From: Trypanosoma brucei
Taxonomy: Eukaryota
Assembly (NCBI GenBank): GCA_000002445.1
Contig: CP000068.1
Location: forward strand, 704,001-768,000
DNA: 64,000 nucleotides
Direction: 5' to 3'
The notes beneath the pieces are model-generated. The model searched no databases and was not told the DNA's origin. It saw only the letters and a list, made by a program, of their open reading frames with translations. Every line of letters begins with the position of its first letter. Position 1 is the stretch's first letter. This document shows positions 17,171 through 49,740 of this stretch, in pieces. The translations under genes and the position numbers were made by a program.

Positions 17171-17240
17171 CTGCTTCCCCTTGCTTTATTTTCTTGTTCT
17201 TGTTCATCCTTTTTTTTTCTACTAATTTTTCTCGATTTTG
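17171..17240 (+). promoter_or_regulatory. polypyrimidine tract: putative trans-splice acceptor region for the NPPF-motif gene
   Basis: A long C/T run (cttccccttgctttattttcttgttcttgttcatcctttttttttctactaatttttctcgattttg) with AG at 17247-17248, upstream of the ATG at 17343. Confidence 0.3.
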
Positions 17241-17342
17241 CGAGGCAGTGGTTGGGTCGCCTGCGGGAAATACCGTTTAAGGGCCCAGGAGAGAAGGCAG
17301 GTTGTCCTCGGTTTACCTCTGTGCTTCATAAATCAGCAACTC

Positions 17343-23076: not shown

Positions 23077-24342
23077 CCTATACACGCAAAGAAAAAAAAT
23101 CCAGTTGGAATGGTATGCGACTTCCCACCGTTTTCATGCTATTCTTTGTTTTCCCCTATTTTTTTAAAAAAGTTTTCTTTTAATTTTTTTTTCTCTTCGC
23201 GTGCGAAACCAACGTTATGCTTTTTGTGGTTCTTTTCACTCACTGTCGGCACCGCCAGCGGATGGCGTCCGCTTTCTGTGGTTGTTTCTACAGTGTTTCG
23301 ACTCCCAGTTCTGGGGTGTACTTTTTGAGTGAGGTACTGAAAGGTTATTTATTAATTTATTTTTTGCACGTGAGAAGAAAAAATAAGAAAAGGAAATGAA
23401 AGGAAAAAGGGAGAAGATGTTTGGCGGTGTGAGCGTTGGTGTGATATGAATTTGAAAAAGGAACAGGAATGTTGTGGAGGAGCATATGGGATAAGGCACG
23501 TGGGAACTGTGGAGTTGTTTTATTCTCTTTTATGATCCTTCCTATCTTGAGGAACACTGGCAGGGATGCATAAACATTGTTTTACCTGTTTCTTCTTCTT
23601 CTTCTTTTTTTCTTTTTGTGGAGGACGCCACACTGTTATCGCTGCTAAAGTATGTTGTCACCACCGAGCGGCATTTGCGTTTAATGTGTGTGACCGCGGG
23701 ATATTTAATAGGGGGTGGATGCTCGAAGACCGAGTTAGTTAGGAACTGGGGATTAATATACGTACACATTAAAAGAATGATACAAAACGGAAGGGAGAAG
23801 TGGAGGAAAGGGATATTTAAGAAGAAAAGAAGAAAGAAGAAATATTTTCTCTCTTTTTTCTTGTTTTACATAGCGGCAGGACGTAACTCATTTTCTTAGT
23901 TTTCAAGTTATCACTGTCCTTTCAATACTTTTATTGATTTTTTGTATATTTTAGTTTTATATCACTGGCTGCACGTACAACTCTACCTCAAAAGAACCCT
24001 TCTTCTGTTTTCCCCCTTTCTTCTGAACGGTAAATATTCTTGTTTATAATTATATTCACACGCATGTTAGCAGTTGACGTTGACGGTACCACAGTCTTAG
24101 AAAATCGGGTCACGCTTTTTCCCACTTTTGCACAAGAGCGCTGGTGGAGAGAAGGGTAAGCGGACATATTCGTACGGTAATCGCGTAGCAAACTCAAATC
24201 AAAACAAAAAAAAAATAAAAAAAAGAGGAAAAGACAACACCAAACCGAAAAAGGTTGTAAAGGATACGGCTTTGAAGTCAACAGAAAGGGGGTGTATAGG
24301 TGTGAAGGAGGTAGAAATATACGTTTTATTGATCAGTTAACG

Positions 24343-24564
24343 ATGAGTGGCATTCGAGTGGCGATCTTCTCCAAATATTTTGCGGCGGGTGTCACAGTGG
24401 GGGCGCTGTTATGCTCACGGCACTGCTCATGGATGTTAGCAACACATCATGCGGATATTCAACAACACTACGGCAATATTATGAGGTACGCTGAGCAGGT
24501 CACATCACTGGAGGAGATGTTGGGCATACATGAAAAGACAACGGGGGATGCCAGGAACGGATGA
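24343..24564 (+). CDS. candidate small ORF (73 aa, one predicted TM helix)
   Basis: MSGIRVAIFSKYFAAGVTVGALLCSRHC... has a hydrophobic segment consistent with a single TM. It lies alone in a 2.8-kb gap. There is no homology evidence and it could be spurious. Confidence 0.15.
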   Translation: MSGIRVAIFSKYFAAGVTVGALLCSRHCSWMLATHHADIQQHYGNIMRYAEQVTSLEEMLGIHEKTTGDARNG

Positions 24565-25387
24565 TGCGCGCCGTCAGTTTCCTCGGCGAAAAAAACAAAC
24601 GAAATTACACGTGAGATGGTTTCATGAATGTTCTTTTTCTCTTTTGTTGTTTTTTTTTTTTCCCTCCTATTACTTGTTTCCTTTCAATGCATACATGAGT
24701 ATATAGGTGGTAACCTTTTTTTTTGGTGGGGGGGGGGGTAAGAGGGGACACTGTTTTCATTTGATAGAGGAACTAATGTTTCTTGGTTCGTGCCGGGTAT
24801 TTGCGTGACTGTCTTTAGTTTTTATTGTTCTTATTTATTTTTTAAAAAAAAGGTACTGGTCATTTTGCTAGTGACAACAGCCAAGGAGGTGTGTGCGAGA
24901 GTTACTTTTTTTTTTTAGAAAAAAAGGGAGGAGGGGATGTTTCGAAAAGAGAATAATATGGACTGAAGAGTTCCGTTTACAAGGACGATTACGTTTTTAC
25001 GGGCGTTGTGGGGTTTAATAGATATACCACGAGTCGAAATCAAGGCTAGCGAGATATGCATAGTACTCACCCACCTCTCTCTCTCTCTCTAAAAAGAAAT
25101 AATAATAAAAAAGCAGAAGCCTTTGTTGTTTTTGACACGTAGAGTATTTTCCATTTTTTTTACTTAATATTCTGCTATTCCTGTGCTATTTTTGTTTTTT
25201 TTGTCATTCCGCACTCAGTGCGTTTAACCAGCTTCTCCATTGTTCAGTAACTTCACTGGTTTTAAAGTATATAGTTATATAGAAAAGTGAAACGGTTCGC
25301 GCGACTATGAAAGGATCGTATAATATTTTCTGTTTCTCTCCATTGTTTTTTGTTTTTTTCTGCAGTCTGTGATTTCTTAAGTGCGCC

Positions 25388-25482
25388 CCTCTCCATTTCC
25401 CTTTATTTTGTTTTTAATGTTTGCTCGTCTTTCCTTTTCTATTTTTTCTCTTGTCTTTTTGGTGTTTTTCCCTCCGGGATCA
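25388..25482 (+). promoter_or_regulatory. polypyrimidine tract: putative trans-splice acceptor region for the giant gene, followed by an about 350-nt purine-rich leader
   Basis: About 90 nt of almost pure C/T, then AG at 25481-25482. The 25500-25845 region is strikingly GA-rich (aaaggaaaggaaaag...) up to the ATG at 25846. Confidence 0.3.
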
Positions 25483-25845
25483 GTTCCCCGACTACTCACG
25501 GTGAATAGGTGGAGCGAGTCGAAGGAAAGAGAAGGGGGAATACAAACGAAAAGCAACTTCAAACCAAACGGAAGGACAACAACAACAGAAAACAAATCAA
25601 AAGTTCAACATCCAGCACGTCGCTGTCGTTACCTCCTCAGCGGTGCACGAGAGTGAAGGTGGAAAGGTGGCGGTGGCGGTGGGACAAAACAAAAAGGAAA
25701 GGAAAGAAAAGTGAAACAAAAAGTGAATAATAATCGATAGTTTACTCCCCTCCGGGGAGAAAAAGGAGGGAAACAAAACAAAAACAAAAAACAAAAGTGA
25801 AAAGGAAAGGAAAAGGGAGAAGGGAAAACAAGAGAAAAAAGGTAG

Positions 25846-28800
25846 ATGGCTGCTCGGTTGGAGGCAATTGCAGCAGAATACTTTCTGCCTGCAAAACCTG
25901 AGAACCGTACGAGGGAAGGAGACAGCGTTAGCAGCAAGGGTGGTAAGATAACACACACCTCTGCTGAAGCAGCGGCAGGAAATAGCGGTCAATACCCACC
26001 AACTTCTTCACAGGAATCCGAAACGGATAAGAAGCGCGGTGGTGTTAGCGAAGATGACTGTGGAAAGTCTTCAACACCTTTAGCATTGCTTGACAGCGCA
26101 CATATTCTTCCCCCTCTCATGCTCTATTTTGAATGCCTACCAACGGAATGGGAAACAACGCCTGCTGTATCCGCAAATCAACCAGCGGTTCCAGGTTTAG
26201 TGCGGACATCGGCGTCAGGTGGCGTGCCAACAGGGTGTGAAGTTGCGTGGCAACGCCCAAGGCAATTCGGATCGGATCCTAGTGATAAATCTTTTTGTGC
26301 AAAGTGGTATGGAAAGCGTAGGAGGCAGGGCACTCAGAAAGAAATGGGAGCCGCGGTCTCATGTGAAGATAGGTATAGGGGAAGGCAGCGAGTACAATCG
26401 GACAATGGCCTCTGGAGGTGGTGTGATGACATGGATGTGTTTGCAAACTTTGCACAGCCCCCGTTGAGTGTTGTTTGCGCTTCGTATGAGATGCTGGACG
26501 AAAGGCACCAACGTGGTCTTAACGCGGTCACCACACTAGTAGAAAAGTGCAACGACTCTTTTCATCGCGAGCAGTGGGTCACGGCGACCTCGTTGTCCAT
26601 GCAGCGCCCACCATTTGGGTTCGGAAGCACTGAGGCAGGCACTTCTACTAATGCTGGTTCCATGCCTGCTTGTGCCTCAACCCCGACACCGACTCTTACA
26701 GACTATCGTAGTTCCATTGTAAACTCTCTTAACAGTTTTTTGCGTAGCTTGAGCAAGCGCGGTGACCAAGTTCTCGTGTTGCATATAATTATACGAGTGG
26801 CCACGTGGCGGTTTTGTAGTAGGAACGAGAGGGTTACTCTTTTATTTAATCACATCCACGCATGTTTGCCGACTGTTCACCCATCAACGGCAACTCTAGC
26901 AATGGAAGCGTGGGCGCAACTTCACGCGATAGGGGCAAGCTCCACGGTATACTTGAAAATTGCGACCGAGATGTTGCGACTGGCATGCACTTTTATAAGT
27001 GATGTGAGTGTGCCTGCGGGCCAAGTTAGTGGGTTTATTATGATCCACCACATAGCGCAGTGGCCTTACTTGCTATATCGTACTTTACTGCGTGACGAAA
27101 GAGATCGGCTCTTGCTCGTGATATGGAAATCATTGATGAGCACTCACCAGCCACACGTGCGCGAGTTGGCGGCAGTGGCGCTGCGAAGCTTGTTTATTCT
27201 GGATATCGTACGGGGAAGTTATTCTTGTATGCGCGAGTTGTTGGACCGAGCTGCTTTACTTGTACTATCACCCGGTGACCACCAAAAGGCACCTTTATCT
27301 TCTCCACGTACTGCACCAGTCACCAAAGGTGCCGCCCATAAGTCACAGCGTGCAACACCGTTAGGCACTTCGTTAAAACAGTTGGAAGCACCCCTTTTAG
27401 TGGGCGAAACCGCTTGTACTCCGAGGGCTGTTGTTGGCACTGAATCTGTCGGTACTGGACAATGTTGTCGAGAGGGCACCTCATGTACAATTACACTCCC
27501 GAGTATCCCTTTTTTTGGGTGCACGATAGCCCGTCAATATTGTTTGAACTGGAATTCATCATCTGGTGACGGTGGTGCGACTTTAGTTGCCACGGAAAGC
27601 GGTAGTAGTGGAGGGGACTTGCTGAGGCCGGCTGCAGAAGAGGCTGTTGTTGTCGCGAAGGGTGAACTGGGGAATGTAGAGGGGCGTTGTTTTGTACCGC
27701 GGTTATCCCCTCCTGCTAATGACGAACCATTTTTGTGCGGGTATATTAAACAAGTTGATCCGGCCAATAAGCGCTTTAAGAACCGGTTGGCAACGATCGC
27801 CCCGTCTCACAACGCGGATACCAACTTGCATGCTAGCACCCTCGTGATTGGAGCGTTCGTGAGTGCCCTGCGTTCCTGTGCTGCCTTCCTTGAAATTCCT
27901 CCCTTAGTTGGTGCAGAAGATACACAACCTGGTGTGGCCACAGGTCTACGAGGTGCTAACGGAGGCGAAACCGTGTCTGTCAGTGAAGCACAGGGAGGTC
28001 CTCCGTGTTCGTCTGAGAGTAGCGAGGAAACCGATTCATGCAGGAGATCAACCAGTCTTGCCGGTAGCAGCCCTTTGTATGACACTGCTGGCGGTGCCAA
28101 AACCACTTTGTCGATTGCAGCCGTGATGGAGCACCTTGACGAAACTTCACTAGGGCGGTCACCACCAAAAGGGGGAAAATATCACGCGGCGCCAAATACT
28201 GGGGATCGGCGATCGCTCGGTTATCCTTCTCGGAGTCAGGAGGGGCAGGGCTCTGCACCAGCGGTCCCTGATGATACCAGAAAGGTCAAAGAATTGGTGT
28301 TGTGGAGGTTATTCCCAGTGCAACCACTTCTCCAATGCTTAGCGCGTGAACGACAGGATAAATCAAGCTCTTTATGGCATGTCGAGCGACTGGTTGCTGT
28401 TTTGGCACTTTATGGTCTTCATACTCTGAAGGAGGGTGAAATTCGTGGAGCTTTAGACATGCTTTTAAGAAGGGCTAAGGTGGCGCATAGGAAGGCTGCG
28501 GCTGGTAAACAGCAGCAGGAGGCGTGTGTTCTACACGTAGCCCTTCCTGCATCTGCCGCTTTTGGTAACTCCACAGTTGGTGGTGGAGTCGGCAGTATTG
28601 CTGGAGACACAGTTGGGACCAGTGAGAAAGACATGTACACACTGTCTCTCGTCAACTTGTCTCTTTTTCTTTCAGCTATTGCAGTGAAGTATCCGCAACT
28701 GTTTGAGGTTACGTTTGTAAGCCATATTTACCCGATGCTTTTCTACGCTCTTCAGCAGGCAACACCAGCTTACTGTCCCGCCGCCAGTGCAGTTCTCGCT

Positions 28801-31800
28801 TTACTGGTACACAACTTTCCCGTATCAAGTCGTGACCGGTTGCAACCCATCGTAGAGCGACTCACTGGTATCGCTACTTCAATGCCTTTCAGCACACATA
28901 CACTGGGGGCTACCGCAAAAATTTGTGGTGTTTACAGAGAAATGCGGCTTCATTGCTGCCTCGCTTTGTTGCAGCGTATTGCTGAAGTATTGAACGATAA
29001 TGGGCCGGTGATCGTGCGGGGCGCCAGGGACACGGCGGTAAGCGATATGGAGAGGGAGTCCGTCTGCACCGATTTCCCCCTGAAGAGCGCATCCGACACC
29101 AGGAGGAAGATTGTTTGCTTTCGTGTGCTTCACACTGTATGCATGGAGTGGGAGGGCACCGCTCTATTTTTCCTTGAGGTGTGTGCTCCATATTTACATC
29201 ATCAGAACACCGTCCTCAGGCGTGCGTGCGTGCAATCATGTGTACGTCTGCTACTGTCGGATTGTTTCCTTTCAAGAGCCGAGAGAGTGGGCGGTTCACC
29301 ACTGAGTGATGCGCTGGATGGTGAAGTGGAGCAGATGGCAGCGTGCGCCGTGAAGTGCCTGTGGGATGGAGACTTGAAAATCGGGTCTCTCTGCGCTCCG
29401 TGCAATCCGACACTATACAGGAGCGAGAGAAACGGGATTATCACCTCCGAGACCCGAGCGTACCCCTTCCTTGCACATGCGTTTGATAACGTTAATTTGT
29501 GCGACGTAGGGAACGTCCGTCGTGGTTTCGGTGACGATGGCGACACCAACAGCGAAGATGAAAACAACCTTAATCTTGACCGAGCGCTAGAGTGCTCACC
29601 GCTTGAGTCGTCAAACCATGACGCAACCTTCACGTGCGAGCGCCACACAGGGCGGTCCCATAACAATATTTTGCGCGAAGTGTTGCATCGCCTCGTTGTG
29701 GTTGCGTTGTGCGACCCCGATGAAACCATACGTCACTCGGCACTCAATAGTCTTACCAAGGAGACGGATCAGTTTCTTTACACCCACAAGGAGATAGTTG
29801 ACCTAATTTTCTCAGCCCTCAACGATGAGTACCCACCTAATCGATTGCAGGCAGTAAGGATACTACGACGACTTGGACACTACATTCCGATGGTTGTGTA
29901 CCCACGGCTGCGAAAAGTATTTTCGCTAGTGATCCAAGATTTCCACAGCACAATGACCAGCTCGGTGAAAAAATCAAAGGTTGTTCAAAAAGGGGATGAG
30001 TGGGCGGGAGCTCGCGGTAACTGTGAGCTTTCTTATGGTAGTAGTCAGAGCCATAGAGTCAACGCAGATACCCCTACGAACGCATTTACCTCTAACAGCA
30101 CCAGTAATGTCGTGAAGTATAGTGCCGATGAGATGATGCTTCTTTTCGAACTTGTGCAGTCGGTACCAAACTTCATTCCAATTTACATCGATACTATGCT
30201 ACAACTCTTGCAGCAAGTGCTTGTACCCCACGATATGCTGGAACGCGGAACTGTCATTACCGCTCTTCACATTGTTTCTTTCCTCATGGACGAAACCACT
30301 CGGGTGGAATGGCCAAAATTTGAGGTATTACTTAGGCCACTTTCGCAGCAGTTACTGCTGCGTGACAATGACACCAATAGGCTACACGTGGCTATTGGCA
30401 CTTTGCAGAAGCTCATACAATATGTTGTCATTGGAAATCCTTTCGATCAAAGGGATGATTTGAAACTTACTGTTGAGAGCCTTTACTCACTTCTCTACCG
30501 TAGGCCACCTATTGACACTGAGCTTTCCCTCTCGGTGGTTAAGCTCCTGGGGACAATTAGTGCCATTTGCACTGACCGTAAGTTTGACGACCCACAGAGT
30601 ACCCCTCTTCTTACCCTTGCTACACTCAGCGGAAGTCGTGGAAATTTTGGAACCTTCGCTAGCACGTACCAGCTATCCATTCGACCAACTCCGGGCTACG
30701 CGATGTTTCTCAGGGCGGCTCGACCAGAAGCTCCTTTTTATGGTAATGAGGCAAAAAGTGGGCGCAGTTCGCAACTCACCGATTATTTGTGGCCTGATGT
30801 TATGTTGCGTGTGTTGCTCCGAACCCTTTCCGATGCACTTGACGATATTATTGCCTTTACTGACGAGGAACTACAAGCCTGCCTGCAGGCAGCAGTGGCG
30901 GTCCTGCGCAGCTCCGACGCACCTTCAAAGTTGCAACTGTACCTTCCTCCACTATTGAGTGTTCTTGCAGGCTTGCTGGAACGCACAGATGAGGATGCTC
31001 CCCTCCGTGTATATGTCACAGAAAGTATCGTTGAACTAGTAAAGCCGGCCGGACGAACTATTGCTCCGATGTTTGAGCTTCTTGTTGTCTTCCTGAGTGA
31101 GCACCTAATGTCTTCAATTTACACACTTCCAAGTTGTTGCAAGCTTCTGATCGGCCTTTGCGAGGCATCTCCAGATTTGGTTCAAGAGCACTGTGAATGG
31201 TTTGTTTTGCTACTGTTGGGAAAGCTAATGCACCACGTTGAAATGGCGACATCAGCTACAGCCTCCGCGACTATGCAGAGACAGAGACGTAATCAAAAAC
31301 AAGGAGCCCCGCAGCAGATTCCTAATGACTTCGATCCATCACCACAAGACACTATAGCAAGGTCTTATGTACCGGGTTCAGTTATAGGTGTTGTCCTCCA
31401 AGCCGTTCTGGCATTGCTTCCCATTGCCGATGGGTCGACGGTTCATTACGCATGCCTCATGTTTTCACAAATATTGAGGCGTGCGGGCGGCATATCGGAG
31501 CCGCTCATGGTGGGTGAGGAGACTGTAGAGGGTCACACATCGAACGTTACCGTTCCTACGGGACTTAGTGTTGAAGTTATAAGGGGCATTGTGCAAGCCT
31601 TGGTGGACCTTCTTGAAAATTTTGACCTGACAGCAATTTCTATGTTCGTGGTCGAGACGGCACTGCTGCTACTTCGAATCTACGCAAAAGCCGCCCATGG
31701 AGTGACCAACCAGCCTTCTACCAGATGCTCAGAAGAAGAATCGACACGGAGAAACATCTTGTTGGTACCCGCTGGTAACACTCCTAAGATACAGGAGACA

Positions 31801-34800
31801 CCTAAAATAACTTTGGGGAGCTTGCCTTACGGGCACCAAGAACCACCTAAAACATGGTTTAGTCAATCTCCGTTGTCTCGCTTGGTAGTGGAGGAAATTG
31901 TGAACAAGAACACAAGCATCACTTACCGTTTTCCCTTCGATGAAGTGACCACCTCGTGGGAGGCACAAGTGGAAATGGATCTCCTCGCATGCGTGTTCCT
32001 GGTGTGTGGCCGTTGCAGGTTACCGGCTGTGTCGTATGAGTTAGTTGTCGGCGAATATATCGAAGAGCGCTTTCAACCAAGTGAGCGGATAAAAGAGTTC
32101 TTTAGGGCTGTCTCGTCTCCAACTTCCCGTGTTTCTCTTCTTCATGGTAGCCAGCAGAAACCACCTCTAAATTCACCGTTGCGTTCTGACGGTTTCGCGG
32201 CAGAGACGGAGTTACGTGGGGAAACGATAGGTATGACACCATCTTGCGAAAAAACGGCGACTCCCACAAAATTTGAGAGAGCATGGAGCAGCATGCATCA
32301 GTTGGTAAAACATACATGCTTCGACGGAGACATACCGCGGAAGTCCGCCCCCATTCCAATGGGTTCTACAAACTTTCCATCAAGCATGCGGTCTTCTCTA
32401 TTGTCATCGCCGTATCCAACACAAAATGTATCGTCAGTTAGAGATATTTCCGTTTTTGCTGGCAGAGAATCAGGGCCTGGGGTTGGGTGCACCACGCATG
32501 TCACGCCTGCAAGCAACATATCCCCTGTGGCATTTGTTTCTGGGGACCGCTTGCTAGCAAGAGTTGCTTCCAGTTTGTCTGAAAATGAAGAGTTGAGGAG
32601 CCTTGGAAGAAAACGGTTGTCACAAGTCTGTGAATCACCATTCAGTGTTGGTGGTGGCGTAGTGAACTTAAGCGGGCGGGCTCCATCATCAGAAGTTCAA
32701 GCGCTAGCAGATAATGTTTCTCTGGACATTGGGCGGGATTACGATAATGAAAATATGGATGGTGATATAGAGGAGCAGCGCTTTTTCAAATTGCACGAAA
32801 ACCTCTCCAACAGTGAGTGGCGACCTTGGTTTGAGCTGTTCTGCGTTATCCTAGTGGAGTGCAGCGACCACGCATGTGTGAGTAGCTGCACTTCTCTGCT
32901 GAGACGGCATTTCAGTATATTTTCCTCCGATATTCTTCCAGTTGCCTTCCTTTCCCATCTGGTTGCATGCGATTGCAAAAGAATGGTGCGGTGGCTAGAG
33001 CTGCTCCGTGACTTCGCATATGCACACGATTATATTCCCCATACGATAGCAGGGGCACTGGCCCAGCTTGCATACAACGTGCGGTTGACTCGAGAGGCCT
33101 TACTTCCCCCCTCATTGGCGAAAACTGTCGCCGAAGAATTTGTCACCTTGGATCTTGTCGCCACACTCGCCGAAAAAGCGCTTGACGCCCCTCTCGTGCT
33201 TGTGTGCGCTGAGGAGAAATTATTATCTGAATTTTCCTGGGAGGCCGCAGCAAGGTTGTACAGAGCTCTAGAAGATTTAAACTATCCATTTCGTACTAAT
33301 ATTTTGTGCAACCAACCCGGCTTTCGCAACGCCATCCGTAAGTTGATGAGAAACTGCAACGGAGAAAAACAGGAAGAACACTGCTGGGATACTCCAGTGT
33401 GCGCTGCAGATGGCGTGCCTGGAGAAAGTGATCATAACTCACCTTTTCCGTGGGAGGTGGCCGATGACGCCACAAGCGTTTTTGGGCTCTCTCCAATGCT
33501 ATGTGGTGTTTGTCCAGTTGCAACAGACCCTAGCAGTTGGAGGCGAGAAGAGAACACGAAGGTGAAGAAACGTATGCCTCCACCAGTGGTGTTGGAGTTT
33601 GCGTGGCCAGAGGTAGCGTTGGGTCAGTACCTCCGCTTAATTTGCATTGGACTGGATGACGTTCACTCTGAAGAGGCTGTTGGAGGTCATAGTTGCCCAA
33701 CAAGTTTGGGGAGAGAGTTACCAGTCAAAATTTCTTCAAACGATGTAGTAGGAGCGATGCGCTGCTACATGCGGGTGTATGATTTTGAGAGTATTTTAAA
33801 TCTCTGGAAGGTCGTGAAGGGTATCCGACTTCTACGGCGAGCTGACGAGAGAGCAGTTAACAACCGTTTCCATGAAATAGAGCGGTCTTTGCTTCGCACG
33901 ATGTGGCCCACATCTGAGTGTCCGACAGAGGCTCACATTGCAAATTTTGTGGTGTCAGCGGCTAAATCGCTTTCTCGATGGGATGTTGTGAAGGAACTGA
34001 GCTACAACGACTTTCTCCCAGACGGTGAAGGCAACTCCCAGTTCACACAGCCATATAGAAGCTTCCCTTTTTATAAGCAGATGGAAATATCTCGTGCCGC
34101 CGCGTTGGTTAAATCGAAGTGCTATGGTGAGGCGAAAGGGGTGCTAGCCCCTTTACGTGCCGCTTTAAGGGATTCATACACCGTATTCTACACTGAAAAT
34201 GCGCGACTCAAAATTGAACTGAGTGTTATGTTTCAGGAAATATCGGACCTCGAGGAAGGCATCAACGCCATAGAGCTTAAGAGAACCACAGGAGGTGCTA
34301 GCAGTGATTTTCCAGCCGGCAGTGGACCCCTTCCTGGCATAGGCACTTCCCATTCAGTGGGCAATTCCGTTTGTGCTTCGCCCGAACTGTGTGGAGAGGG
34401 GAGGGCTGACTATTCACCCTCTTACGCTGGAACGCATGCCGGTCACGAGCAACACTACAGCCAGGGGAAAAGATGTATGGCTTATACGGAGGCCACGATG
34501 CGTCGCCTACAGAACATTGCTGGTCGTCTTCTTCCTGAACACAGCACTATTCTTCAGCGGTTTGAGATAATAGCCCTCCGAAGCACCCTCGGTCCTCCGG
34601 AATGGCAACTGCAAAATATTCTGATATTGTGTGAACGCATTGCCGAAGAGGGTAAACCACGACGTGCTGTACAAGCGATTGAACATTTTCTTACCCCTCC
34701 TATCGATGATGCTGATCGGGAAGGATATCGCGAATACAGAAGTAGTTTAATGTTGGAAAAGTACCGTATCGGACTGCAACACCTGTGTGACCCGCAAGAT

Positions 34801-37800
34801 CTTGAGAGTTTGTCACATCAAATTGCTTGGGAGATGTCCATTGATATTGATATGTTCACCGGAAGCCAACCCACTCCTGTGCAGTTGGCTGCAGAGGATC
34901 CGAGTTCATGTTTACGCTGTGCATACACAGGTGCCATCGGCCAAGAACGCAGTGAGTCAATGTTGCTTCTCTTGTTGTGTCAGCGCAAGATGGTTCGTGC
35001 TAAACGGCGACAAAGACACTGTTTTTCTTCCGGTAGCGCAATAGGCGCTTCAAACGGCTTTGCGGCGGAACCCGTAGAAAGTGTAAACGTTATATCTTCA
35101 CAATCTGAAGACAATGGTTCGTCTAAGATCAGGAGCCCATTGTGCAGTAATGGGGCCACTGGACGAGTAGAGTGCACTATCGACTGCCCTAGGAGTGATG
35201 CTGAAATCGTTCGTGAGTACTATCGTATCGAGGAAATTGTTAGCACACATGAAGCAACGGCCTCTGTTTGGCGCGAGTTGGGGTTGCTGCTGTTTGATGT
35301 ATGCATGGCCATATACAAGGAGTGGGTTTGTACGCGCGAGTCCAAGACGCTCAGCAATTTCTGCATACGGTCGAAGGAAGCGATCAGTGCACTGCAGAAG
35401 GCTGTTACGATTTGGAACACTCAAACATTCAGTTCAATCTCCGGAGTTGGTCCATATCAGAGCACTTCTGTGCGTCGCCTGCGTCACTCTCGCACCGCAC
35501 TACCGGTTGTTCACCTCCTTTTGAAGTCGTTACATCTGGCGATGATGTTAAGCGATATTTTGAGCGATGAAGCGCATCTTAAGTGTTTGAATAACGTCGG
35601 AAGCACGTCCCCTACGGCAGCTGAAGCCTCGGAAAAATGCGATGATGATTACATCGGTGGCGACTTTCACCAAGCACCGAGGAGTAGTTGTGCTGATTCA
35701 GTCAATGAGGTGCTGGAGGACAGCAAGCCATGGTCTGAGGGCATGGGTTTCTTGAATTTGGATTTCTCGCCTGGAATGCATCTGCACTGGGGATGTGCAT
35801 TACCGTTCTTGATAAACGCCGCCGCGCGATACGATGAGCTGCGTAGCGTGGTGCGTGATATGTGTTCGCATTCACGGGTTATGCTGTACCAGTGTGTGTA
35901 TCAGTTGGTTTCTCTTGACCACAACTACTCTGATGGGTGCAAAACAGAAAGGGAACTAAGTCACGAGCACAATAACCCTTGTGGTCTGCGGTCCCCTTCC
36001 TGTATTTCAACCGCTGCGCCGTCGGTACCTTGCTCGCAAGTCCCCGTGGAAGAACAGCTTCTGGCGGAGGACACCGTTAAACGGATGGCTACGCAGGAAC
36101 CACAGGAAGAAAGGTCGCAAAGGTTTGGTCAGTTCACTGACATTCTTTCTAATCTGGGGACTGTAAGTGAAGAGCATAGAACGGTTATTGATCAAACATT
36201 GCAGTTCTGCGAATTCGTGATGGGCGACAAAGGGACAACCCTCATTCTTGGCGGTTGCGCCTTGCCTGTACCTCTGTGGAACCTCCAGCGCTACATGGCC
36301 ATGACGTGTTTGACAGGGGAAACGACTGGCAAATTCTGCGAAGCAGTCAAAGCTGGATCGACTGGTGCGGTTAGGGCAGCATTGGTTTCTGGGGTGTGTA
36401 GTACCAGTGTCGAGTTGCAACGTATTCAACAAGTACGCCGTCAAATGTGTTGTCCTTCCGCGGAGGGAACACAAGAAGAAGTATTCGTGCTTCTGCTATC
36501 TGATGGAACAATGCCACGCTTTCACCGATTTATTCCCACGGGAGGTTCTTCTACAGACTGTGGAGGTAAAACCAGTGGGGGAGCAGTACCTATCACACAG
36601 CCGTTCCACGCAAGTCCGTGCGATGTACGTCGAAATACAAAAGGGTTGAACTGTCCCTCAGCTCTTTTCTCCGATGTGAATTCTTTTTTCTCCCAGCCCT
36701 GTGAATCAAGCACCCCTGTACCGGTAGCGAACCATTTTGTCCGTTTTACTGCAGACCAACGTCAGTTTCCCGGTTTCCAGGAACCTTCTAACTATGTGCC
36801 CCCAATTGCGGCGATGGAATGTGTGATCAGCTGTTTACTAGGTCACTTGCCCGTTCGGTATCTCCGCAGGCCTCTGGTGTTGCCACTAGGATTGAAGGAT
36901 TTCATCACCCAATTACCTAACGTTGCCGTCACTTCCTCCAACTGGCAGATGAAGTTGCCGCCGTCGCTGCAGGCTAAGTGTACTGCATTCATGGGACGCC
37001 AACCGTTGTCACTCTTTCATATTCTTAATGAGTACAAGAAACATTTGTTCAGTAATTCGGCCCTCGACGGACGGCGGGATGATCATCACGGGTGTCAGAG
37101 TAGAGTTTTTAGTGGCGGAAGTGACGGCTCACCGAGGTGTAGTCCCGTGGCCAAGGCTGAGATGCGTGCAGCTTCCCCACCACATCATCGGCGGCATCGC
37201 AGCAAGAAAAGAGGGCTTTCAACGCAGTATGAACAACGTTTGGCGCATGCTTTTGACTATGGGAGTATTCAACCACTCTGCTCATTCATTGAAAAGAATC
37301 TGGAAGTCACATCTTCGGCGACTCAACTGCCCAGACCTGCGGCGCAGATGGAGGCTTTGTATAGCGAGTTGGTGAAACTCCTTCCTCGTTGTTCATGTAA
37401 TAGGCGTGGAACGAAGCCTGAGTCAGGACCATCGCCAACAGAAAGTGGTACCCAGGTGAGTAAGGGAAGTGAGGGTGATCCTGTGGCTGCTGGTGAAACC
37501 TTTTCCGTGTCATCAACACAATGCAAATGCCCTAATACAAACTGGACACAGCTAGATGAATCACTACTGACCGAAGTGCGGCTGATAATTTTACGACACG
37601 AGGCACCACTGTATACTGATGCACTTCAGCTTTCACTTTACACGGCATCAACCGATGCAGGTAAATGGTTAAATATCGTTCAAACCTTTACAGGTGAGCT
37701 GGCAGAGTGTAGCATGATCGAGTACTTGTTGGACGTAACAGATCGTGAGTCCACCACGTTTTTTGTGGATACAGCAACAGGACATGTTGCAACGCACTGC

Positions 37801-39099
37801 TTGGGTGGTCATGCGTTGCAGAGACGTCGTCAATCAAGACACTCCGTGGCCTTTCAGCACAGCCAATCGCTTAACGGCGGAGAACCGGCAACGACAGAAA
37901 CGGGACCAAAAGCAGATGAAGAAGATGTGGATGTGACACCAGGCAGTTCCCCCTTTCCATGCACGGATCCTACGATCTTCCGCCTGACAGGGTCTCTGCT
38001 CGCTGTCTTGCCCCTGAAGTGCCCCTTCGGTGTTTTTCTCAGTACCGCGACGCAGTGCCTGTTTTCTATGCTTCGGTATCAGACAGACCTCGTCGGGATC
38101 GTCAAATATGGTCTTGAAGACCTGAGGGGGTTCGCCTGCCGCCACGTTCCCCTCCAACAAGAACAGTTTCCTGAGAGCACACGAGGTTTTAACGCCGAGT
38201 CGGGGAGGCGGCCCACAAGTGAGCACGGAAGGGGGAGCACAGATGTGGATTCTATACCAGGAGGTTTGGGGTTATCTCCATATGCGGGGTTATCACCGAA
38301 GGGATCGAACAACCAAGTACCCACTTGTGTTTCACATCGTCCAGGGGAGGTGCGAGTGAACACATTTTCTATAGCAGATGCCTCGGGGGCGTCACTGCAC
38401 TCGGCGTTTACCGGGGGGACGTTGCGAGACGGTTCCCCACGTAATACGCCAGAGTCCACAAACTCACAACCCCCATTGCATTCAACACAGGATGTCATCA
38501 CTGCGCACGAGAAGACAGTGAGGTGTGAAGTGCAAGAACCATTTCCGCATGCGATGGAGAGTTGGGTGGTGGCGAATAAAGGACAAGGTGCCACCGTCGA
38601 TGGGGCACCGTTGAGGAGAAAATCATCGTCCGCCGCGGTATTGGGACTCATTTCGGGGATTTCAGTGAAGAAAGCCGCACAGCAACGTTCACTTAACTTG
38701 GATTTACCCAAGCTTTTTGATTGCGCTTCTATCTTCGTGAAACTTAGCGATGATTTGTTGCCGATGCGTAGAGAACCAGCTGTCGAGGCTTTTTCTGGAC
38801 TACAGAGTAAAAGTTTCAAAGACTCAGTTGACACCCTCCGCTGTGAGAGGGCTCGTGAAGATTTAAAGGCCACTGGGTCCCTGCAACATGCAACGAGTGA
38901 TACCGAAGTCGAAGAAAAACGTATGCTGCAGCCTGATAAAAGTTGTAACGCTCACCCACATAATGCGAATGTGGCAATCACCGCACGAACTGTTGAGAGC
39001 CGCGTGGTTCAACTGATTAATGCTGCTGTAAATAACAAAAATCTTATAGGAACTACAGATGTTCCACATCGATGGCGTAGTTGGGCACCGCAGTGGTGA
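25846..39099 (+). CDS. giant (4,417 aa) HEAT/helical-repeat protein with C-terminal FATC domain and degenerate PI3K-like kinase segment (Tra1/TRRAP-like pseudo-PIKK)
   Basis: A single uninterrupted ORF. The last 31 aa, VVQLINAAVNNKNLIGTTDVPHRWRSWAPQW, fit the FATC consensus (V..LI..A....NL......GW..W) found at the C-terminus of every PIKK. About 360 aa upstream is VKYGLEDLRGF, which resembles the K-G-x-EDLRQD N-lobe motif at the spacing seen in mTOR or ATM. Catalytic DRH and DFG motifs are absent. HEAT-like repeats are visible, e.g. RHSALNSLTKETDQFLY...RLQAVRILRRLG. Confidence 0.8.
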   Translation: MAARLEAIAAEYFLPAKPENRTREGDSVSSKGGKITHTSAEAAAGNSGQYPPTSSQESETDKKRGGVSEDDCGKSSTPLALLDSAHILPPLMLYFECLPTEWETTPAVSANQPAVPGLVRTSASGGVPTGCEVAWQRPRQFGSDPSDKSFCAKWYGKRRRQGTQKEMGAAVSCEDRYRGRQRVQSDNGLWRWCDDMDVFANFAQPPLSVVCASYEMLDERHQRGLNAVTTLVEKCNDSFHREQWVTATSLSMQRPPFGFGSTEAGTSTNAGSMPACASTPTPTLTDYRSSIVNSLNSFLRSLSKRGDQVLVLHIIIRVATWRFCSRNERVTLLFNHIHACLPTVHPSTATLAMEAWAQLHAIGASSTVYLKIATEMLRLACTFISDVSVPAGQVSGFIMIHHIAQWPYLLYRTLLRDERDRLLLVIWKSLMSTHQPHVRELAAVALRSLFILDIVRGSYSCMRELLDRAALLVLSPGDHQKAPLSSPRTAPVTKGAAHKSQRATPLGTSLKQLEAPLLVGETACTPRAVVGTESVGTGQCCREGTSCTITLPSIPFFGCTIARQYCLNWNSSSGDGGATLVATESGSSGGDLLRPAAEEAVVVAKGELGNVEGRCFVPRLSPPANDEPFLCGYIKQVDPANKRFKNRLATIAPSHNADTNLHASTLVIGAFVSALRSCAAFLEIPPLVGAEDTQPGVATGLRGANGGETVSVSEAQGGPPCSSESSEETDSCRRSTSLAGSSPLYDTAGGAKTTLSIAAVMEHLDETSLGRSPPKGGKYHAAPNTGDRRSLGYPSRSQEGQGSAPAVPDDTRKVKELVLWRLFPVQPLLQCLARERQDKSSSLWHVERLVAVLALYGLHTLKEGEIRGALDMLLRRAKVAHRKAAAGKQQQEACVLHVALPASAAFGNSTVGGGVGSIAGDTVGTSEKDMYTLSLVNLSLFLSAIAVKYPQLFEVTFVSHIYPMLFYALQQATPAYCPAASAVLALLVHNFPVSSRDRLQPIVERLTGIATSMPFSTHTLGATAKICGVYREMRLHCCLALLQRIAEVLNDNGPVIVRGARDTAVSDMERESVCTDFPLKSASDTRRKIVCFRVLHTVCMEWEGTALFFLEVCAPYLHHQNTVLRRACVQSCVRLLLSDCFLSRAERVGGSPLSDALDGEVEQMAACAVKCLWDGDLKIGSLCAPCNPTLYRSERNGIITSETRAYPFLAHAFDNVNLCDVGNVRRGFGDDGDTNSEDENNLNLDRALECSPLESSNHDATFTCERHTGRSHNNILREVLHRLVVVALCDPDETIRHSALNSLTKETDQFLYTHKEIVDLIFSALNDEYPPNRLQAVRILRRLGHYIPMVVYPRLRKVFSLVIQDFHSTMTSSVKKSKVVQKGDEWAGARGNCELSYGSSQSHRVNADTPTNAFTSNSTSNVVKYSADEMMLLFELVQSVPNFIPIYIDTMLQLLQQVLVPHDMLERGTVITALHIVSFLMDETTRVEWPKFEVLLRPLSQQLLLRDNDTNRLHVAIGTLQKLIQYVVIGNPFDQRDDLKLTVESLYSLLYRRPPIDTELSLSVVKLLGTISAICTDRKFDDPQSTPLLTLATLSGSRGNFGTFASTYQLSIRPTPGYAMFLRAARPEAPFYGNEAKSGRSSQLTDYLWPDVMLRVLLRTLSDALDDIIAFTDEELQACLQAAVAVLRSSDAPSKLQLYLPPLLSVLAGLLERTDEDAPLRVYVTESIVELVKPAGRTIAPMFELLVVFLSEHLMSSIYTLPSCCKLLIGLCEASPDLVQEHCEWFVLLLLGKLMHHVEMATSATASATMQRQRRNQKQGAPQQIPNDFDPSPQDTIARSYVPGSVIGVVLQAVLALLPIADGSTVHYACLMFSQILRRAGGISEPLMVGEETVEGHTSNVTVPTGLSVEVIRGIVQALVDLLENFDLTAISMFVVETALLLLRIYAKAAHGVTNQPSTRCSEEESTRRNILLVPAGNTPKIQETPKITLGSLPYGHQEPPKTWFSQSPLSRLVVEEIVNKNTSITYRFPFDEVTTSWEAQVEMDLLACVFLVCGRCRLPAVSYELVVGEYIEERFQPSERIKEFFRAVSSPTSRVSLLHGSQQKPPLNSPLRSDGFAAETELRGETIGMTPSCEKTATPTKFERAWSSMHQLVKHTCFDGDIPRKSAPIPMGSTNFPSSMRSSLLSSPYPTQNVSSVRDISVFAGRESGPGVGCTTHVTPASNISPVAFVSGDRLLARVASSLSENEELRSLGRKRLSQVCESPFSVGGGVVNLSGRAPSSEVQALADNVSLDIGRDYDNENMDGDIEEQRFFKLHENLSNSEWRPWFELFCVILVECSDHACVSSCTSLLRRHFSIFSSDILPVAFLSHLVACDCKRMVRWLELLRDFAYAHDYIPHTIAGALAQLAYNVRLTREALLPPSLAKTVAEEFVTLDLVATLAEKALDAPLVLVCAEEKLLSEFSWEAAARLYRALEDLNYPFRTNILCNQPGFRNAIRKLMRNCNGEKQEEHCWDTPVCAADGVPGESDHNSPFPWEVADDATSVFGLSPMLCGVCPVATDPSSWRREENTKVKKRMPPPVVLEFAWPEVALGQYLRLICIGLDDVHSEEAVGGHSCPTSLGRELPVKISSNDVVGAMRCYMRVYDFESILNLWKVVKGIRLLRRADERAVNNRFHEIERSLLRTMWPTSECPTEAHIANFVVSAAKSLSRWDVVKELSYNDFLPDGEGNSQFTQPYRSFPFYKQMEISRAAALVKSKCYGEAKGVLAPLRAALRDSYTVFYTENARLKIELSVMFQEISDLEEGINAIELKRTTGGASSDFPAGSGPLPGIGTSHSVGNSVCASPELCGEGRADYSPSYAGTHAGHEQHYSQGKRCMAYTEATMRRLQNIAGRLLPEHSTILQRFEIIALRSTLGPPEWQLQNILILCERIAEEGKPRRAVQAIEHFLTPPIDDADREGYREYRSSLMLEKYRIGLQHLCDPQDLESLSHQIAWEMSIDIDMFTGSQPTPVQLAAEDPSSCLRCAYTGAIGQERSESMLLLLLCQRKMVRAKRRQRHCFSSGSAIGASNGFAAEPVESVNVISSQSEDNGSSKIRSPLCSNGATGRVECTIDCPRSDAEIVREYYRIEEIVSTHEATASVWRELGLLLFDVCMAIYKEWVCTRESKTLSNFCIRSKEAISALQKAVTIWNTQTFSSISGVGPYQSTSVRRLRHSRTALPVVHLLLKSLHLAMMLSDILSDEAHLKCLNNVGSTSPTAAEASEKCDDDYIGGDFHQAPRSSCADSVNEVLEDSKPWSEGMGFLNLDFSPGMHLHWGCALPFLINAAARYDELRSVVRDMCSHSRVMLYQCVYQLVSLDHNYSDGCKTERELSHEHNNPCGLRSPSCISTAAPSVPCSQVPVEEQLLAEDTVKRMATQEPQEERSQRFGQFTDILSNLGTVSEEHRTVIDQTLQFCEFVMGDKGTTLILGGCALPVPLWNLQRYMAMTCLTGETTGKFCEAVKAGSTGAVRAALVSGVCSTSVELQRIQQVRRQMCCPSAEGTQEEVFVLLLSDGTMPRFHRFIPTGGSSTDCGGKTSGGAVPITQPFHASPCDVRRNTKGLNCPSALFSDVNSFFSQPCESSTPVPVANHFVRFTADQRQFPGFQEPSNYVPPIAAMECVISCLLGHLPVRYLRRPLVLPLGLKDFITQLPNVAVTSSNWQMKLPPSLQAKCTAFMGRQPLSLFHILNEYKKHLFSNSALDGRRDDHHGCQSRVFSGGSDGSPRCSPVAKAEMRAASPPHHRRHRSKKRGLSTQYEQRLAHAFDYGSIQPLCSFIEKNLEVTSSATQLPRPAAQMEALYSELVKLLPRCSCNRRGTKPESGPSPTESGTQVSKGSEGDPVAAGETFSVSSTQCKCPNTNWTQLDESLLTEVRLIILRHEAPLYTDALQLSLYTASTDAGKWLNIVQTFTGELAECSMIEYLLDVTDRESTTFFVDTATGHVATHCLGGHALQRRRQSRHSVAFQHSQSLNGGEPATTETGPKADEEDVDVTPGSSPFPCTDPTIFRLTGSLLAVLPLKCPFGVFLSTATQCLFSMLRYQTDLVGIVKYGLEDLRGFACRHVPLQQEQFPESTRGFNAESGRRPTSEHGRGSTDVDSIPGGLGLSPYAGLSPKGSNNQVPTCVSHRPGEVRVNTFSIADASGASLHSAFTGGTLRDGSPRNTPESTNSQPPLHSTQDVITAHEKTVRCEVQEPFPHAMESWVVANKGQGATVDGAPLRRKSSSAAVLGLISGISVKKAAQQRSLNLDLPKLFDCASIFVKLSDDLLPMRREPAVEAFSGLQSKSFKDSVDTLRCERAREDLKATGSLQHATSDTEVEEKRMLQPDKSCNAHPHNANVAITARTVESRVVQLINAAVNNKNLIGTTDVPHRWRSWAPQW

Positions 39100-39665: not shown

Positions 39666-41303
39666 ATGTTGGAGGGACTATGCGTGCGCAAGGCTGTGGA
39701 GCGTCTGCGGCATAAGACATCACAACAGCGGCAACTCGTTAATGAGATGCGGGAACGCGCTGATGCCCTTACTGCAAGTGGCCTCGCTGCTGCTCGTGCA
39801 AGGCGGGACCCGGCTGCGCAGAAGCTGCAGCACCAGGAACCTTGCTTTGTGGAGGTAGCAAGCAGCAGCAACCTGCAGCGCGGTTTCTCTCCTGATTGTA
39901 TGCTAAGTGGCGTCGCGATTGGTGTGTCGGATACGCTTGACGTGCGAGAGTTTTGCACGCGGTACGGGACTCAGTCACAGCTACTGCAGCAGATGCCACA
40001 AACAGAATTTCCTTTCGTCTCCTGGCTTCGCCGCCATGGTGCCCAGTTTGTCGGAAAGTTGGCGTGTCGGACACCGCTGACAATCGATGAGGCAAGTCTG
40101 ATTGTTTCTGACAACCCTGCTGCCGTGGCCGTTTCTCGGAATGCGTGTAACTACGCCATCAGTTCCTCGCTTATGGGGCCTGCAGCCCTGACATCCCCCT
40201 TACATCATCCTATTGCTTCATTTAAACCCACAGCGCAGTCGTTTGCGACATTTGCGGAGGGTTATCGACTCTCGGTTCCGTCCATGTCCTTCGGTATAAC
40301 CGCGGGGACTCTCGATGATATATTTTATTTGTGGGAAGTATTTACGTCAGCCATTCAACCAGCCTCATTCTTTGACACTCAGAGCGGTGATACAACCGAT
40401 GGGAATGACGGGAATGCCGTCACCGATAGCAATAAGGCCACCGGATCCACGAAACGGAGGCGCCCGGTGCCCTCCCCTCCAAATGACTCGAGCGCGAACC
40501 GTTATGGATATGCCAGTGTAGGAAGGTTCAAACGTTCGATTAGTGATGGGTATTCAAGTTTACGAGGGAGTCGGCCAACAAGTGGGGAGGAGGAATTGAT
40601 TGGACCACACATTGAACTTTCTGTCGGTTATCCCGCGGATTGGATTGATGCCCTTTGCCATGAGCGACTCTTGTCGGCTGACGAGTTCCGCCGCCGCATT
40701 CTTCGGCTTGTTTCCACACGCAATTCTATGCGAAAGAATGAAGTTTTGGAGGTCATTCCACTCACTATTGACATTGACCTGGAGGAGGTAGTGCAGGCAA
40801 CACAAACAATCGGCCTTTACGAGCTTTCACAAGCCTTCGATCGCCTCTTCTTCTGGAACACTCATTCGGACGGAAGAGATCCGTGCTTATCATCATCATC
40901 ATCCACATCCGGAAAAGCGGGCGTACTGGAGGAACTTCCGGAAGAACTAGTGTCTGCAATTTTTAATGGTAGAGCGCTGACCAGTCTTGACTACCATCGT
41001 GCACTGCGAACGCGTGACAGTGTTGTGAGGGCAACAGAGGAACAGTTTCGTGACGTCGACTTCATATTAACTCCGATGTTGTCAGAACCGTACGTAAACA
41101 GCAGCATGAGAAGCATCGCACTCCTGCTCCCGTTTTCACTCGGTGGGAATCCAATGGTTTCGTTGCAGTTAGAACCGGACTTTCCTGTCGTGCTTATTGG
41201 TGAGTTAGGTCGGGATACGGGATTGTTTGAGGATAGCACTACGTTTCTTCAGTTCGTGCAAGGAACATCACCAGGATGGTGGCGGAGAAAGTTTATGAGG
41301 TGA
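39666..41303 (+). CDS. hypothetical protein
   Basis: A 545-aa ORF with coding-like composition. LSGVAIGVSDTLDV is only a faint echo of the amidase-signature N-motif, and no GGSSGG or catalytic Lys is present. No call is possible. Confidence 0.5.
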   Translation: MLEGLCVRKAVERLRHKTSQQRQLVNEMRERADALTASGLAAARARRDPAAQKLQHQEPCFVEVASSSNLQRGFSPDCMLSGVAIGVSDTLDVREFCTRYGTQSQLLQQMPQTEFPFVSWLRRHGAQFVGKLACRTPLTIDEASLIVSDNPAAVAVSRNACNYAISSSLMGPAALTSPLHHPIASFKPTAQSFATFAEGYRLSVPSMSFGITAGTLDDIFYLWEVFTSAIQPASFFDTQSGDTTDGNDGNAVTDSNKATGSTKRRRPVPSPPNDSSANRYGYASVGRFKRSISDGYSSLRGSRPTSGEEELIGPHIELSVGYPADWIDALCHERLLSADEFRRRILRLVSTRNSMRKNEVLEVIPLTIDIDLEEVVQATQTIGLYELSQAFDRLFFWNTHSDGRDPCLSSSSSTSGKAGVLEELPEELVSAIFNGRALTSLDYHRALRTRDSVVRATEEQFRDVDFILTPMLSEPYVNSSMRSIALLLPFSLGGNPMVSLQLEPDFPVVLIGELGRDTGLFEDSTTFLQFVQGTSPGWWRRKFMR

Positions 41304-48152: not shown

Positions 48153-48177
48153 ATATATATATATATATATATATATA
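48153..48177. repeat. (TA)n microsatellite
   Basis: tatatatatatatatatatatatata. Similar runs occur at 49850-49876, 60804-60825, 63154-63177 and 1615-1632. Confidence 0.9.
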
Positions 48178-49677: not shown

Positions 49678-49740
49678 TGATTTATTATTATTATTATGAT
49701 TTATTATTATTATTATGATTTATTATTATTATTATTATTG
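49678..49740. repeat. 19-bp tandem repeat (tgatttattattattatta) x about 3
   Basis: Direct reading shows the unit recurring at 49678, 49697 and 49716, then decaying into (tta)n. Confidence 0.8.

Follow-up and report, generated by a model that had tools for sequence, protein, structure and literature searches.

A giant protein of trypanosomatids that is probably a catalytically inactive member of the TOR lineage

A single gene of 4,417 codons occupies positions 25846 to 39099 of the stretch of Trypanosoma brucei chromosome 5 analysed here (contig CP000068.1, positions 704,001 to 768,000 of the forward strand; these 64,000 nucleotides are hereafter called the window, and all positions below are counted in it). 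The results of this analysis suggest, with a probability that we put at about 70%, that its product (the giant protein) is an uncharacterised pseudokinase of the TOR lineage within the family of kinases related to phosphatidylinositol 3-kinase (PIKKs), syntenic across trypanosomatids, which would act as a non-catalytic scaffold. Outside the kinase domain, the strongest similarity of the giant protein, and the only specific one, is to TOR; within the kinase domain, TOR is again the best match, and the catalytic residues are not conserved in the family.

An earlier sequence-only reading of this DNA had called the open reading frame (ORF) of 4,417 amino acids (aa) at 25846..39099, and the call was borne out as a single ATG-started frame. 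The product is 100% identical to XP_844907.1 (UniProt Q582D2) of T. b. brucei TREU927, which is annotated as "hypothetical protein, conserved" and carries the automatic UniProt name "PI3K/PI4K catalytic domain-containing protein". Since the product is identical to XP_844907.1 and has full-length orthologues (23-51% identity), two of which lie in a conserved gene order, the ORF is real and no accidental frame. The N-terminus, MAARLEAIAAEYF, is kept in the orthologues of T. congolense and of T. vivax. Because of this conservation, the annotated start appears to be correct and positions 23077-25845 to be untranslated or intergenic; this 2.8-kb gap, which is richer in AT, separates NAA35 from the ATG of the giant gene. 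The features of the gene on which the argument draws are as follows.

25846..39099, + strand: the giant ORF, a complete gene with an ATG start and 4,417 codons plus a stop.
29110..30195, + strand: TOR-like HEAT-repeat segment, aa 1089-1450, with a strong core at aa ~1236-1450.
32743..35925, + strand: conserved blocks in the position of FAT, aa ~2300-3360.
32797..33039, + strand: segment similar to the 'cap' of TOR and to the beginning of FAT, aa 2318-2398, SEWRPWFELFCVILVECS...CVSSCTSLLRR...ILPVAFLSHL.
36403..38133, + strand: PIKK-type kinase-like domain, aa ~3520-4096, with lineage-specific inserts.
36481..36507, + strand: N-lobe beta-strand VFVLLLSDG, aa 3546-3554, its Asp and Gly invariant in six full-length orthologues.
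37741..37758, + strand: degenerate catalytic loop DRESTT, aa 3966-3971, aligned to GDRHPSN of TOR, with the Arg alone invariant.
37798..37806, + strand: CLG, the degenerate DFG, aa 3985-3987, with the Gly alone invariant.
37975..37989, + strand: IFRLT, the PIKK 'FRLT' motif after the activation loop, aa 4044-4048, aligned to PFRLTR of TOR, with F, R and T invariant.
38101..38133, + strand: VKYGLEDLRGF, aa 4086-4096, the last part of the C-lobe helix that follows FRLT.
38134..38700, + strand: variable insert rich in Ser, Gly, Ala and Pro, aa 4097-4285, from the kinase core to the C-terminal helices, with a conservation of 0.15-0.18.
38704..38754, + strand: conserved segment LPKLFDCASIFVKLSDD, aa 4287-4303, with F, S, K and L invariant in six full-length orthologues.
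38980..39096, + strand: FATC-like tail, aa 4379-4417, made of a helix, TVESRVVQLINAA..NL, and then the invariant ...PH.W..WAP[HQ]W.

Relatives were collected by a phmmer search of 1.8 billion representative proteins, with the C-terminal 818 aa as the query. Fourteen proteins were matched; those with a species name came from T. b. gambiense, T. congolense, T. vivax and T. grayi, and the others from unannotated sequencing-run assemblies. One match (P0013) was rejected as an unrelated repeat protein. Six full-length members of 3,831-5,441 aa align end to end with the T. brucei protein at 24-51% identity. Two divergent orthologues among the relatives (23-26% identity) share with T. brucei the gene order Brr2, PCIF1_WW, NAA35, giant gene, amidase-like gene, hydrolase and GlcNAc transferase, and since this order is the same they are true syntenic orthologues. 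The sequence-only reading had proposed to look at such orthologues, and in them the Trp-rich terminus is conserved and the catalytic motifs are missing as in T. brucei.

Among the sequences of the PDB, the HEAT-repeat segment was matched by TOR and by no other protein. When the T. brucei sequence alone was searched against this set, only TOR/mTOR was found, via aa 1236-1375 (E 1.7e-8), and a six-member profile of aa 1080-1800 found 13 distinct sequences, all of them TOR/mTOR (E 6.8e-16 to 8e-11). This match, whose strong core includes ...LHRLVVVALCDPDETIRH...LNDEYPPNRLQAVRILRRL...YPRLRK, is collinear over ~200 positions (KmTor 633-829, mTOR 645-851) and is accompanied by a weaker neighbouring match to TOR 575-634. 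In the TOR 'spiral', the segment corresponds to the quarter at the C-terminal end (KmTor 581-829, mTOR 613-851). At E<=10, neither another PIKK nor any further HEAT protein was found with the profile, and since only TOR/mTOR was matched even at this limit, the similarity is not that of HEAT repeats in general; the Pfam HEAT_2/HEAT matches in the giant protein were weak. The long N-terminal HEAT/alpha-solenoid of a PIKK is present in the giant protein, and so is the sequence of the TOR 'spiral'.

The giant protein also has a PI3K/PI4K-type kinase domain near its C-terminus, as a PIKK does. Pfam PI3_PI4_kinase (PF00454) matched aa 3920-3982 at 29.2-33.3 bits against a threshold of 27.1 (profile positions 101-164 of 241), and it matched the equivalent spot in seven further relatives at 14-31 bits, exceeding the threshold among these only in the divergent fragment P0012. 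A kinase-core profile of 12 family members (aa ~3907-4096), in which WLNIVQTFTGELAECSMIEYLL was aligned with its TOR counterpart and served as a landmark set by the profile alignments, was searched against the PDB sequences with the following results.

TOR/mTOR: E 4.9e-12 to 1.2e-9, 41.5-49.4 bits.
ATM: E 7e-9, 39 bits.
Tel1: E 1e-7 to 1e-5, 28.7-35.3 bits.
SMG1: E ~1e-6, 31-32 bits.
ATR/Mec1: E ~5e-6, 29.4-29.9 bits.
Tra1: E 0.017 to 1, 12.5-18.3 bits.
DNA-PKcs: E 0.66, 13 bits.

Between the HEAT segment and the kinase domain, in the position of FAT, conservation is found in blocks at aa 2300-2400, 2700-3000, 3100-3200 and 3300-3400. A profile of aa 2300-3429 searched against the PDB found only S. 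cerevisiae TOR2, at residues 1234-1312 in the 'cap' that leads into FAT, with a weak E-value of 0.0058. The three TOR matches are collinear, with aa 1236, 2318 and 3930 of the giant protein falling at TOR 633, 1234 and 2245, respectively.

These rankings bear on the possibility that the giant protein is a decayed orthologue of another PIKK whose presence in trypanosomes is otherwise lacking or unclear, SMG1 or DNA-PKcs. Its length is near that of DNA-PKcs, which T. brucei has been reported to lack (PMC8377203), a variable insert of at least about 190 aa stands between the kinase core and the FATC-like tail as in SMG1, and the core matches SMG1 at E ~1e-6. However, both proteins ranked below TOR and ATM in the core, and both, though present in the PDB set, were unmatched outside the generic kinase core, including by the HEAT and FAT-position profiles. 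No DNA-PKcs-specific Pfam domain was matched either. Neither the family-specific N-terminal or NUC194 regions of DNA-PKcs and SMG1 nor the closest kinase similarity to them was found, and the DNA-PKcs candidate described in Leishmania is another protein, which shows good similarity with its human counterpart (PMC8377203). We consider this origin very unlikely.

The sequence-only reading had taken the giant protein for a Tra1/TRRAP-like protein and had seen in it a sign of a SAGA/NuA4-type scaffold or of another large assembly platform in this lineage. A kinetoplastid Tra1/TRRAP would be a pseudo-PIKK scaffold of SAGA/NuA4-type histone acetyltransferase (HAT) complexes, either as a very divergent orthologue or as a functional replacement. 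The dead kinase and a size that is Tra1-like or greater suit this explanation, and to our knowledge Tra1/TRRAP is the only recognised catalytically dead PIKK and the only established pseudo-PIKK. In T. brucei, a number of the subunits expected of NuA4-like complexes are missing, and a scaffold for these complexes has not been identified (PMC8559703; bioRxiv 10.1101/2022.11.14.516520). The identity as Tra1/TRRAP was not supported, however. Although chains of Tra1/TRRAP are in the PDB set, they were unmatched by the HEAT, FAT-position and C-terminal family profiles; in the core, Tra1 reached E 0.017-1 as against 5e-12 for TOR; and the Pfam Tra1 model was not matched at E<=10. A kinase domain without catalytic residues was found, as expected of Tra1, whereas the Tra1-specific HEAT and FAT regions were not, and the specific similarities of the giant protein are to TOR. 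In the main text of the T. brucei study, the HAT1/HAT3/EAF6/BDF6 interactome is made up of other named proteins, and the HAT/NuA4 purifications describe no such subunit, leaving the SAGA/NuA4-type role without support; no Tb927.5.23xx identifier occurs in the supplementary files searched, a weak point since the identifier of the gene was guessed (PMC8559703). We regard a Tra1/TRRAP identity as very unlikely as well, and the inference that trypanosomes possess a Tra1-type SAGA/NuA4 scaffold is removed as unsupported.

With regard to catalysis, the residues of the active site proved to be unconserved. Among the 12 members, the position of the catalytic Asp (DRH) is occupied by D/N/Q/R/H/C/E, that of the His (DRH) by E/S/D/C, that of the Asn (DRHxxN) by T/S/K/R/Y/H/V and that of the DFG Asp by C/V/H/D/Q/R/G/E/N, while the structural positions show little or no variation, namely the loop Arg, the Phe-Phe that comes next, the Gly residues of G-H-V and DFG, and F, R and T in FRLT. 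From what is known of PIKKs, and as an unscored assignment, VFVLLLSDG is inferred to be the counterpart of the strand that bears the PIKK Lys; in the alignment of six full-length orthologues, no conserved ATP-binding Lys and no EDLRQD-type motif was found after it. The residues that mark an active PIKK, namely DRHxxN, the DFG Asp and the ATP-binding Lys, are not retained. Since the catalytic positions are unconserved across the 12 members, the loss of catalysis is a trait of the whole family and not an accident in T. brucei, and, as judged from these alignments, the giant protein and its family are pseudokinases. The earlier view of a catalytically dead PIKK is thereby borne out, with PF00454 above its threshold and the catalytic residues unconserved in 12 relatives. 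The same reading had described DRHxxN and DFG as absent; the loop is present and can be aligned, but it is degenerate (DRESTT, CLG).

VKYGLEDLRGF does exist at aa 4086-4096, as had been reported, but its interpretation as the ATP-site motif KGxEDLRQD was mistaken. It follows the catalytic loop at a distance of 120 aa and FRLT at one of 38 residues, and it aligns with the TOR helix that comes after FRLT (core profile, domain 2). Since KGxEDLRQD precedes the catalytic loop in PIKKs, VKYGLEDLRGF cannot be this motif, and the argument drawn from its spacing in mTOR was wrong because the motif lies past the catalytic loop. It is also very unlikely that the giant protein is still an enzyme, that is, an atypical kinase or nucleotide binder with non-canonical residues: the kinase-fold core and the catalytic-loop Arg are conserved, and the orthologues of T. 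congolense and T. vivax bear the automatic UniProt name 'Non-specific serine/threonine protein kinase', but one would expect conservation of any non-canonical active site that made up for the loss, whereas the catalytic Asp, His and Asn and the DFG Asp are not, and a conserved Lys or EDLRQD-type motif is missing after the N-lobe strand.

The C-terminus of the giant protein probably represents a divergent FATC, as suggested by its position, its form of a helix followed by an aromatic tail, and its extreme conservation. The last 31 residues, VVQLINAAVNNKNLIGTTDVPHRWRSWAPQW (aa 4387-4417), are as quoted earlier. The terminus W-x-x-W-A-P-[HQ]-W was found in 10 of the 11 complete C-termini. Seven orthologues share the ending ...L.G....PH.W..WAP[HQ]W without change, and the terminus is invariant in the syntenic orthologues. 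The last 17 residues are the best-conserved stretch of the protein, with an identity to the T. brucei residue of 0.60 as compared to 0.14-0.49 elsewhere. Pfam FATC (PF02260) was the only family matched by the last 44-50 aa, and four of the seven orthologue tails matched it (best E 0.0017). For comparison, mTOR ends in ...NLCQCYIGWCPFW, with the terminus ...GWCPFW.

Two divergent fragments of the family, P0012 and P0011, which come from unannotated assemblies, look intermediate and closer to TOR. They look the most TOR-like around the catalytic loop and at the C-terminus. P0012 reads WLDRRARYTRLLA...YLLGATERSPQH where TOR has ...YILGLGDRHPSN, and it carries WLDRRARYTRLLATWSIVQYLLGATERSPQH; the C-terminus of P0011 is ...WLVWCPFW.

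Upstream of the tail, the insert rich in Ser, Gly, Ala and Pro is missing or much shorter in compact orthologues. P0012 (aa 587-603, locus L001; Pfam IQ score 22.6 bits against a threshold of 20.3) and P0011 (..AATKIQSFVRNRQRCRR..) have an IQ calmodulin-binding motif in the insert that separates the FATC-like tail from the kinase core; it was not found in the T. brucei protein. An antisense ORF of 264 aa (38079-38873, - strand) runs over the Ser/Gly/Ala-rich insert of the giant gene and is most likely a chance open frame. The equivalent of LPKLFDCASIFVKLSDD, the conserved segment just after the insert, was modelled as a helix in the compact orthologue P0019 (block pLDDT, the predicted local confidence score, 59-73), and LPKLFDCASIFVKLSDD may be a late helix of the kinase domain.

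The interval from the kinase hinge to the catalytic helix measures ~215-240 aa and contains family-specific conserved helices; in mTOR the same interval is ~80 aa, and the LST8-binding element of TOR, which is much shorter, lies there. The family-specific conserved helical insert, YEQRLAHAFDYGS...LPRP...LYSEL..., falls at positions 37228-37600 of the window (aa ~3795-3920). In an AlphaFold2 model of the C-terminus of P0019, it was the sole part predicted confidently (P0019 residues 200-310, pLDDT 70-87). The model starts with a two-strand hairpin and a helix, continues with two strands, long helices and a two-strand catalytic segment, and after a disordered loop closes with helices, the last of them a terminal helix; this predicted order of secondary structure is compatible with a PIKK kinase domain.

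A number of observations weigh against the placement of the giant protein in the TOR lineage. The placement comes from a ranking of profile matches to PDB sequences. In the kinase core, TOR is ahead of ATM by only ~10 bits in a match of ~65 residues. The ScTOR2 match at the cap is marginal, TOR entries other than ScTOR2 failing to reach E<=10 with the FAT-position profile; Pfam FAT had no match in the giant protein, and a profile of the best-conserved mid-block of the FAT position found nothing in the PDB. The FRB domain that TOR has between FAT and the kinase N-lobe was not found at the level of Pfam, the FRB/rapamycin-binding model having no match at E<=10 in either the whole protein or aa 2501-3699, where a diverged helical bundle may still be present. 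The resemblance of the tail to FATC, claimed in the sequence-only reading, stood in part, in that FATC is the sole Pfam match of a conserved tail, but the match is below threshold (16.1-16.5 bits, E 0.007-0.009, threshold 25.3) and limited to the helix (profile positions 3-21 of 32), and the family profile of the tail found no PIKK among the PDB sequences. Furthermore, the segment after "NL" is six residues longer than in the canonical FATC of mTOR. The partners of TOR may not bind the giant protein, because a larger insert stands at the position of the LST8 element. The AlphaFold2 models were of low confidence, with a pLDDT of 33 for aa 3430-4417 (6 sequences) and 48 for the P0019 C-terminus (626 aa, 10 sequences). 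A Foldseek search of the latter model, at this pLDDT of 48, gave no match in the PDB at E<=0.001, a null result that is uninformative because of the low confidence of the model.

The giant protein was also compared with known systems as a whole. It resembles TOR/mTOR (PDB 5FVM, 6EMK and 5H64, among others) in the order of HEAT solenoid, FAT-position region, PI3K-type kinase domain and FATC-like tail, in the collinear similarity at the spiral HEAT repeats, the start of the cap/FAT and the surroundings of the catalytic loop, and in the W-x-P-x-W form of the C-terminus of the family, P0011 ending in WCPFW. It differs from TOR/mTOR in being about 1.8x longer, in having lost all the catalytic residues, in the lack of a Pfam-detectable FRB or FAT, in the long disordered insert of the family before its longer FATC-like tail and in the large helical insert of the family at the position of the TOR LST8-binding element. 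Like Tra1/TRRAP, it is a giant PIKK-family protein with a kinase domain without catalytic residues and is presumably a non-catalytic scaffold, but its relationship to Tra1/TRRAP goes no further than the generic PIKK kinase core. That it works like Tra1, as a non-catalytic PIKK scaffold, is a reasonable functional analogy. Tra1/TRRAP and other PIKKs need the TTT chaperone, and by analogy the giant protein likely needs it too.

TOR3 and TOR4 are kinases of about 2,600-2,700 aa, as distinct from the 4,417 aa of the catalytically dead giant protein. TbTOR3 and TbTOR4 have been described as lineage-specific TOR expansions of kinetoplastids (PMC13340017); the giant protein, which differs from any described trypanosome TOR1-4 (PMC13340017), would be a further and more extreme product of the same expansion.

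In the structure of KmTor-Lst8, the TOR spiral spans residues 64-837, and its helices N-alpha-25, 27 and 29 form with the bridge of the partner the main Tor-Tor interface, which is jointly the platform for RAPTOR; the FAT domain is packed against by the end of the spiral, and the region of mTOR that is bound by the Tel2 chaperone complex has its equivalent in KmTor 360-770 (PMC4833857). The segment retained in the giant protein (~KmTor 581-829) overlaps the Tel2-binding region and the FAT-packing end of the spiral, and it may reach the dimer-interface helices too. Based on the Tel2-binding, FAT-packing and dimer/RAPTOR-platform roles of this HEAT segment in TOR, the following mechanism can be proposed. 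The giant protein would be a client of TTT/Hsp90 whose folding depends on these chaperones, and its FAT-kinase-FATC core would be cradled by the solenoid, possibly as a dimer. The lineage-specific helical and disordered inserts would provide docking surfaces for partners. No substrate would be phosphorylated; the protein would be a non-catalytic platform analogous to Tra1/TRRAP with an independent origin in the TOR lineage. In its fullest form, this scenario is a second independent origin of a pseudo-PIKK: in an ancestor of the trypanosomatids, or of a wider group to which the divergent matches may belong, a TOR duplicate would have become inactive, grown to almost twice its size and come to scaffold a distinct complex. 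This could be a 'dead TOR complex', or a regulator in competition with TOR1-4 over common partners or over the TTT chaperone. We put the scenario forward tentatively, as an unlikely though not negligible possibility.

If the giant protein is a TOR-lineage pseudokinase, a giant kinase turned into a giant scaffold on two occasions. The four trypanosome TOR kinases control growth, cytokinesis, acidocalcisomes and differentiation, and a conserved, unstudied player of ~480 kDa would then join the TOR-family biology of the parasite. Within the TOR-lineage reading, the gene is probably the seventh member of the PIKK family in T. brucei, with a mass of about 480 kDa as estimated from its length. A 2026 study of TbTEL2 listed six T. 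brucei PIKKs, ATM, ATR and TOR1-4 (PMC13340017), and a 2021 review of trypanosomatid DNA-damage PIKKs covered ATM, ATR and a DNA-PKcs candidate of Leishmania only (PMC8377203). The atypical set of a kinome-wide screen in L. mexicana consisted of TOR1-3, ATM, ATR and lipid kinases (PMC7902614). The giant protein is missing from the published T. brucei lists, only ATM, ATR and TOR1-4 being named (PMC13340017), and no paper mentioning it was found in the literature searched by likely gene identifiers and names. The published count would thus be corrected, in that neither the six-member T. brucei list (PMC13340017) nor the L. mexicana atypical set (PMC7902614) contains such a protein. Since these lists omit it, studies of TEL2/TTT clients and TOR-complex proteomics should look for the giant protein. 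A 'PIK' entry of the L. mexicana kinome screen, LmxM.08_29.1450, was considered as an orthologue and rejected, since the table of a 2017 review puts its L. major counterpart, LmjF.29.1450, among the PI 4-kinases.

The large ORFs of the window are all on the + strand, as expected for a polycistronic unit of kinetoplastids. The neighbours of the giant gene in the window encode Brr2/U5-200K, a formin, a PCIF1_WW protein, NAA35/Mak10, an amidase-like protein, a GlcNAc transferase, an alpha/beta hydrolase and a UCH protease. Brr2 and the formin agree with the published identifiers Tb927.5.2290 and Tb927.5.2300, and from this agreement the giant gene sits a few genes past Tb927.5.2300. The formin (FH2) gene (13126-15957, + strand) lies between Brr2 and the PCIF1_WW gene, a position at which two divergent syntenic loci have no formin gene; this difference is a local gain or loss inside an otherwise conserved gene block. 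An ORF of 746 aa (17238-19478, + strand) matches the PCIF1_WW domain (E 1.8e-35), which is named from PCIF1, the cap-specific adenosine methyltransferase, and in two divergent loci of trypanosomatids (L002, L003) this gene keeps its linkage to NAA35 and to the giant gene. Downstream, an ORF of 545 aa (39666-41303, + strand) has a faint Amidase match over aa 75-133 (24.1 bits against a 27-bit threshold), and an amidase-like ORF is directly downstream of the giant gene in both divergent syntenic loci examined. Scans of the window with Rfam and for tandem repeats gave nothing relevant to the giant gene. Further along, 47270-50906 is a region of 3.6 kb without an ORF of >=200 aa, in which the G+C content is 0.32 as compared to ~0.47-0.50 around it, especially at 48000-50000, and which contains a (TTA)n / 19-bp tandem repeat at 49676-49739. 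A (CA)29 microsatellite is located at 63487-63544.

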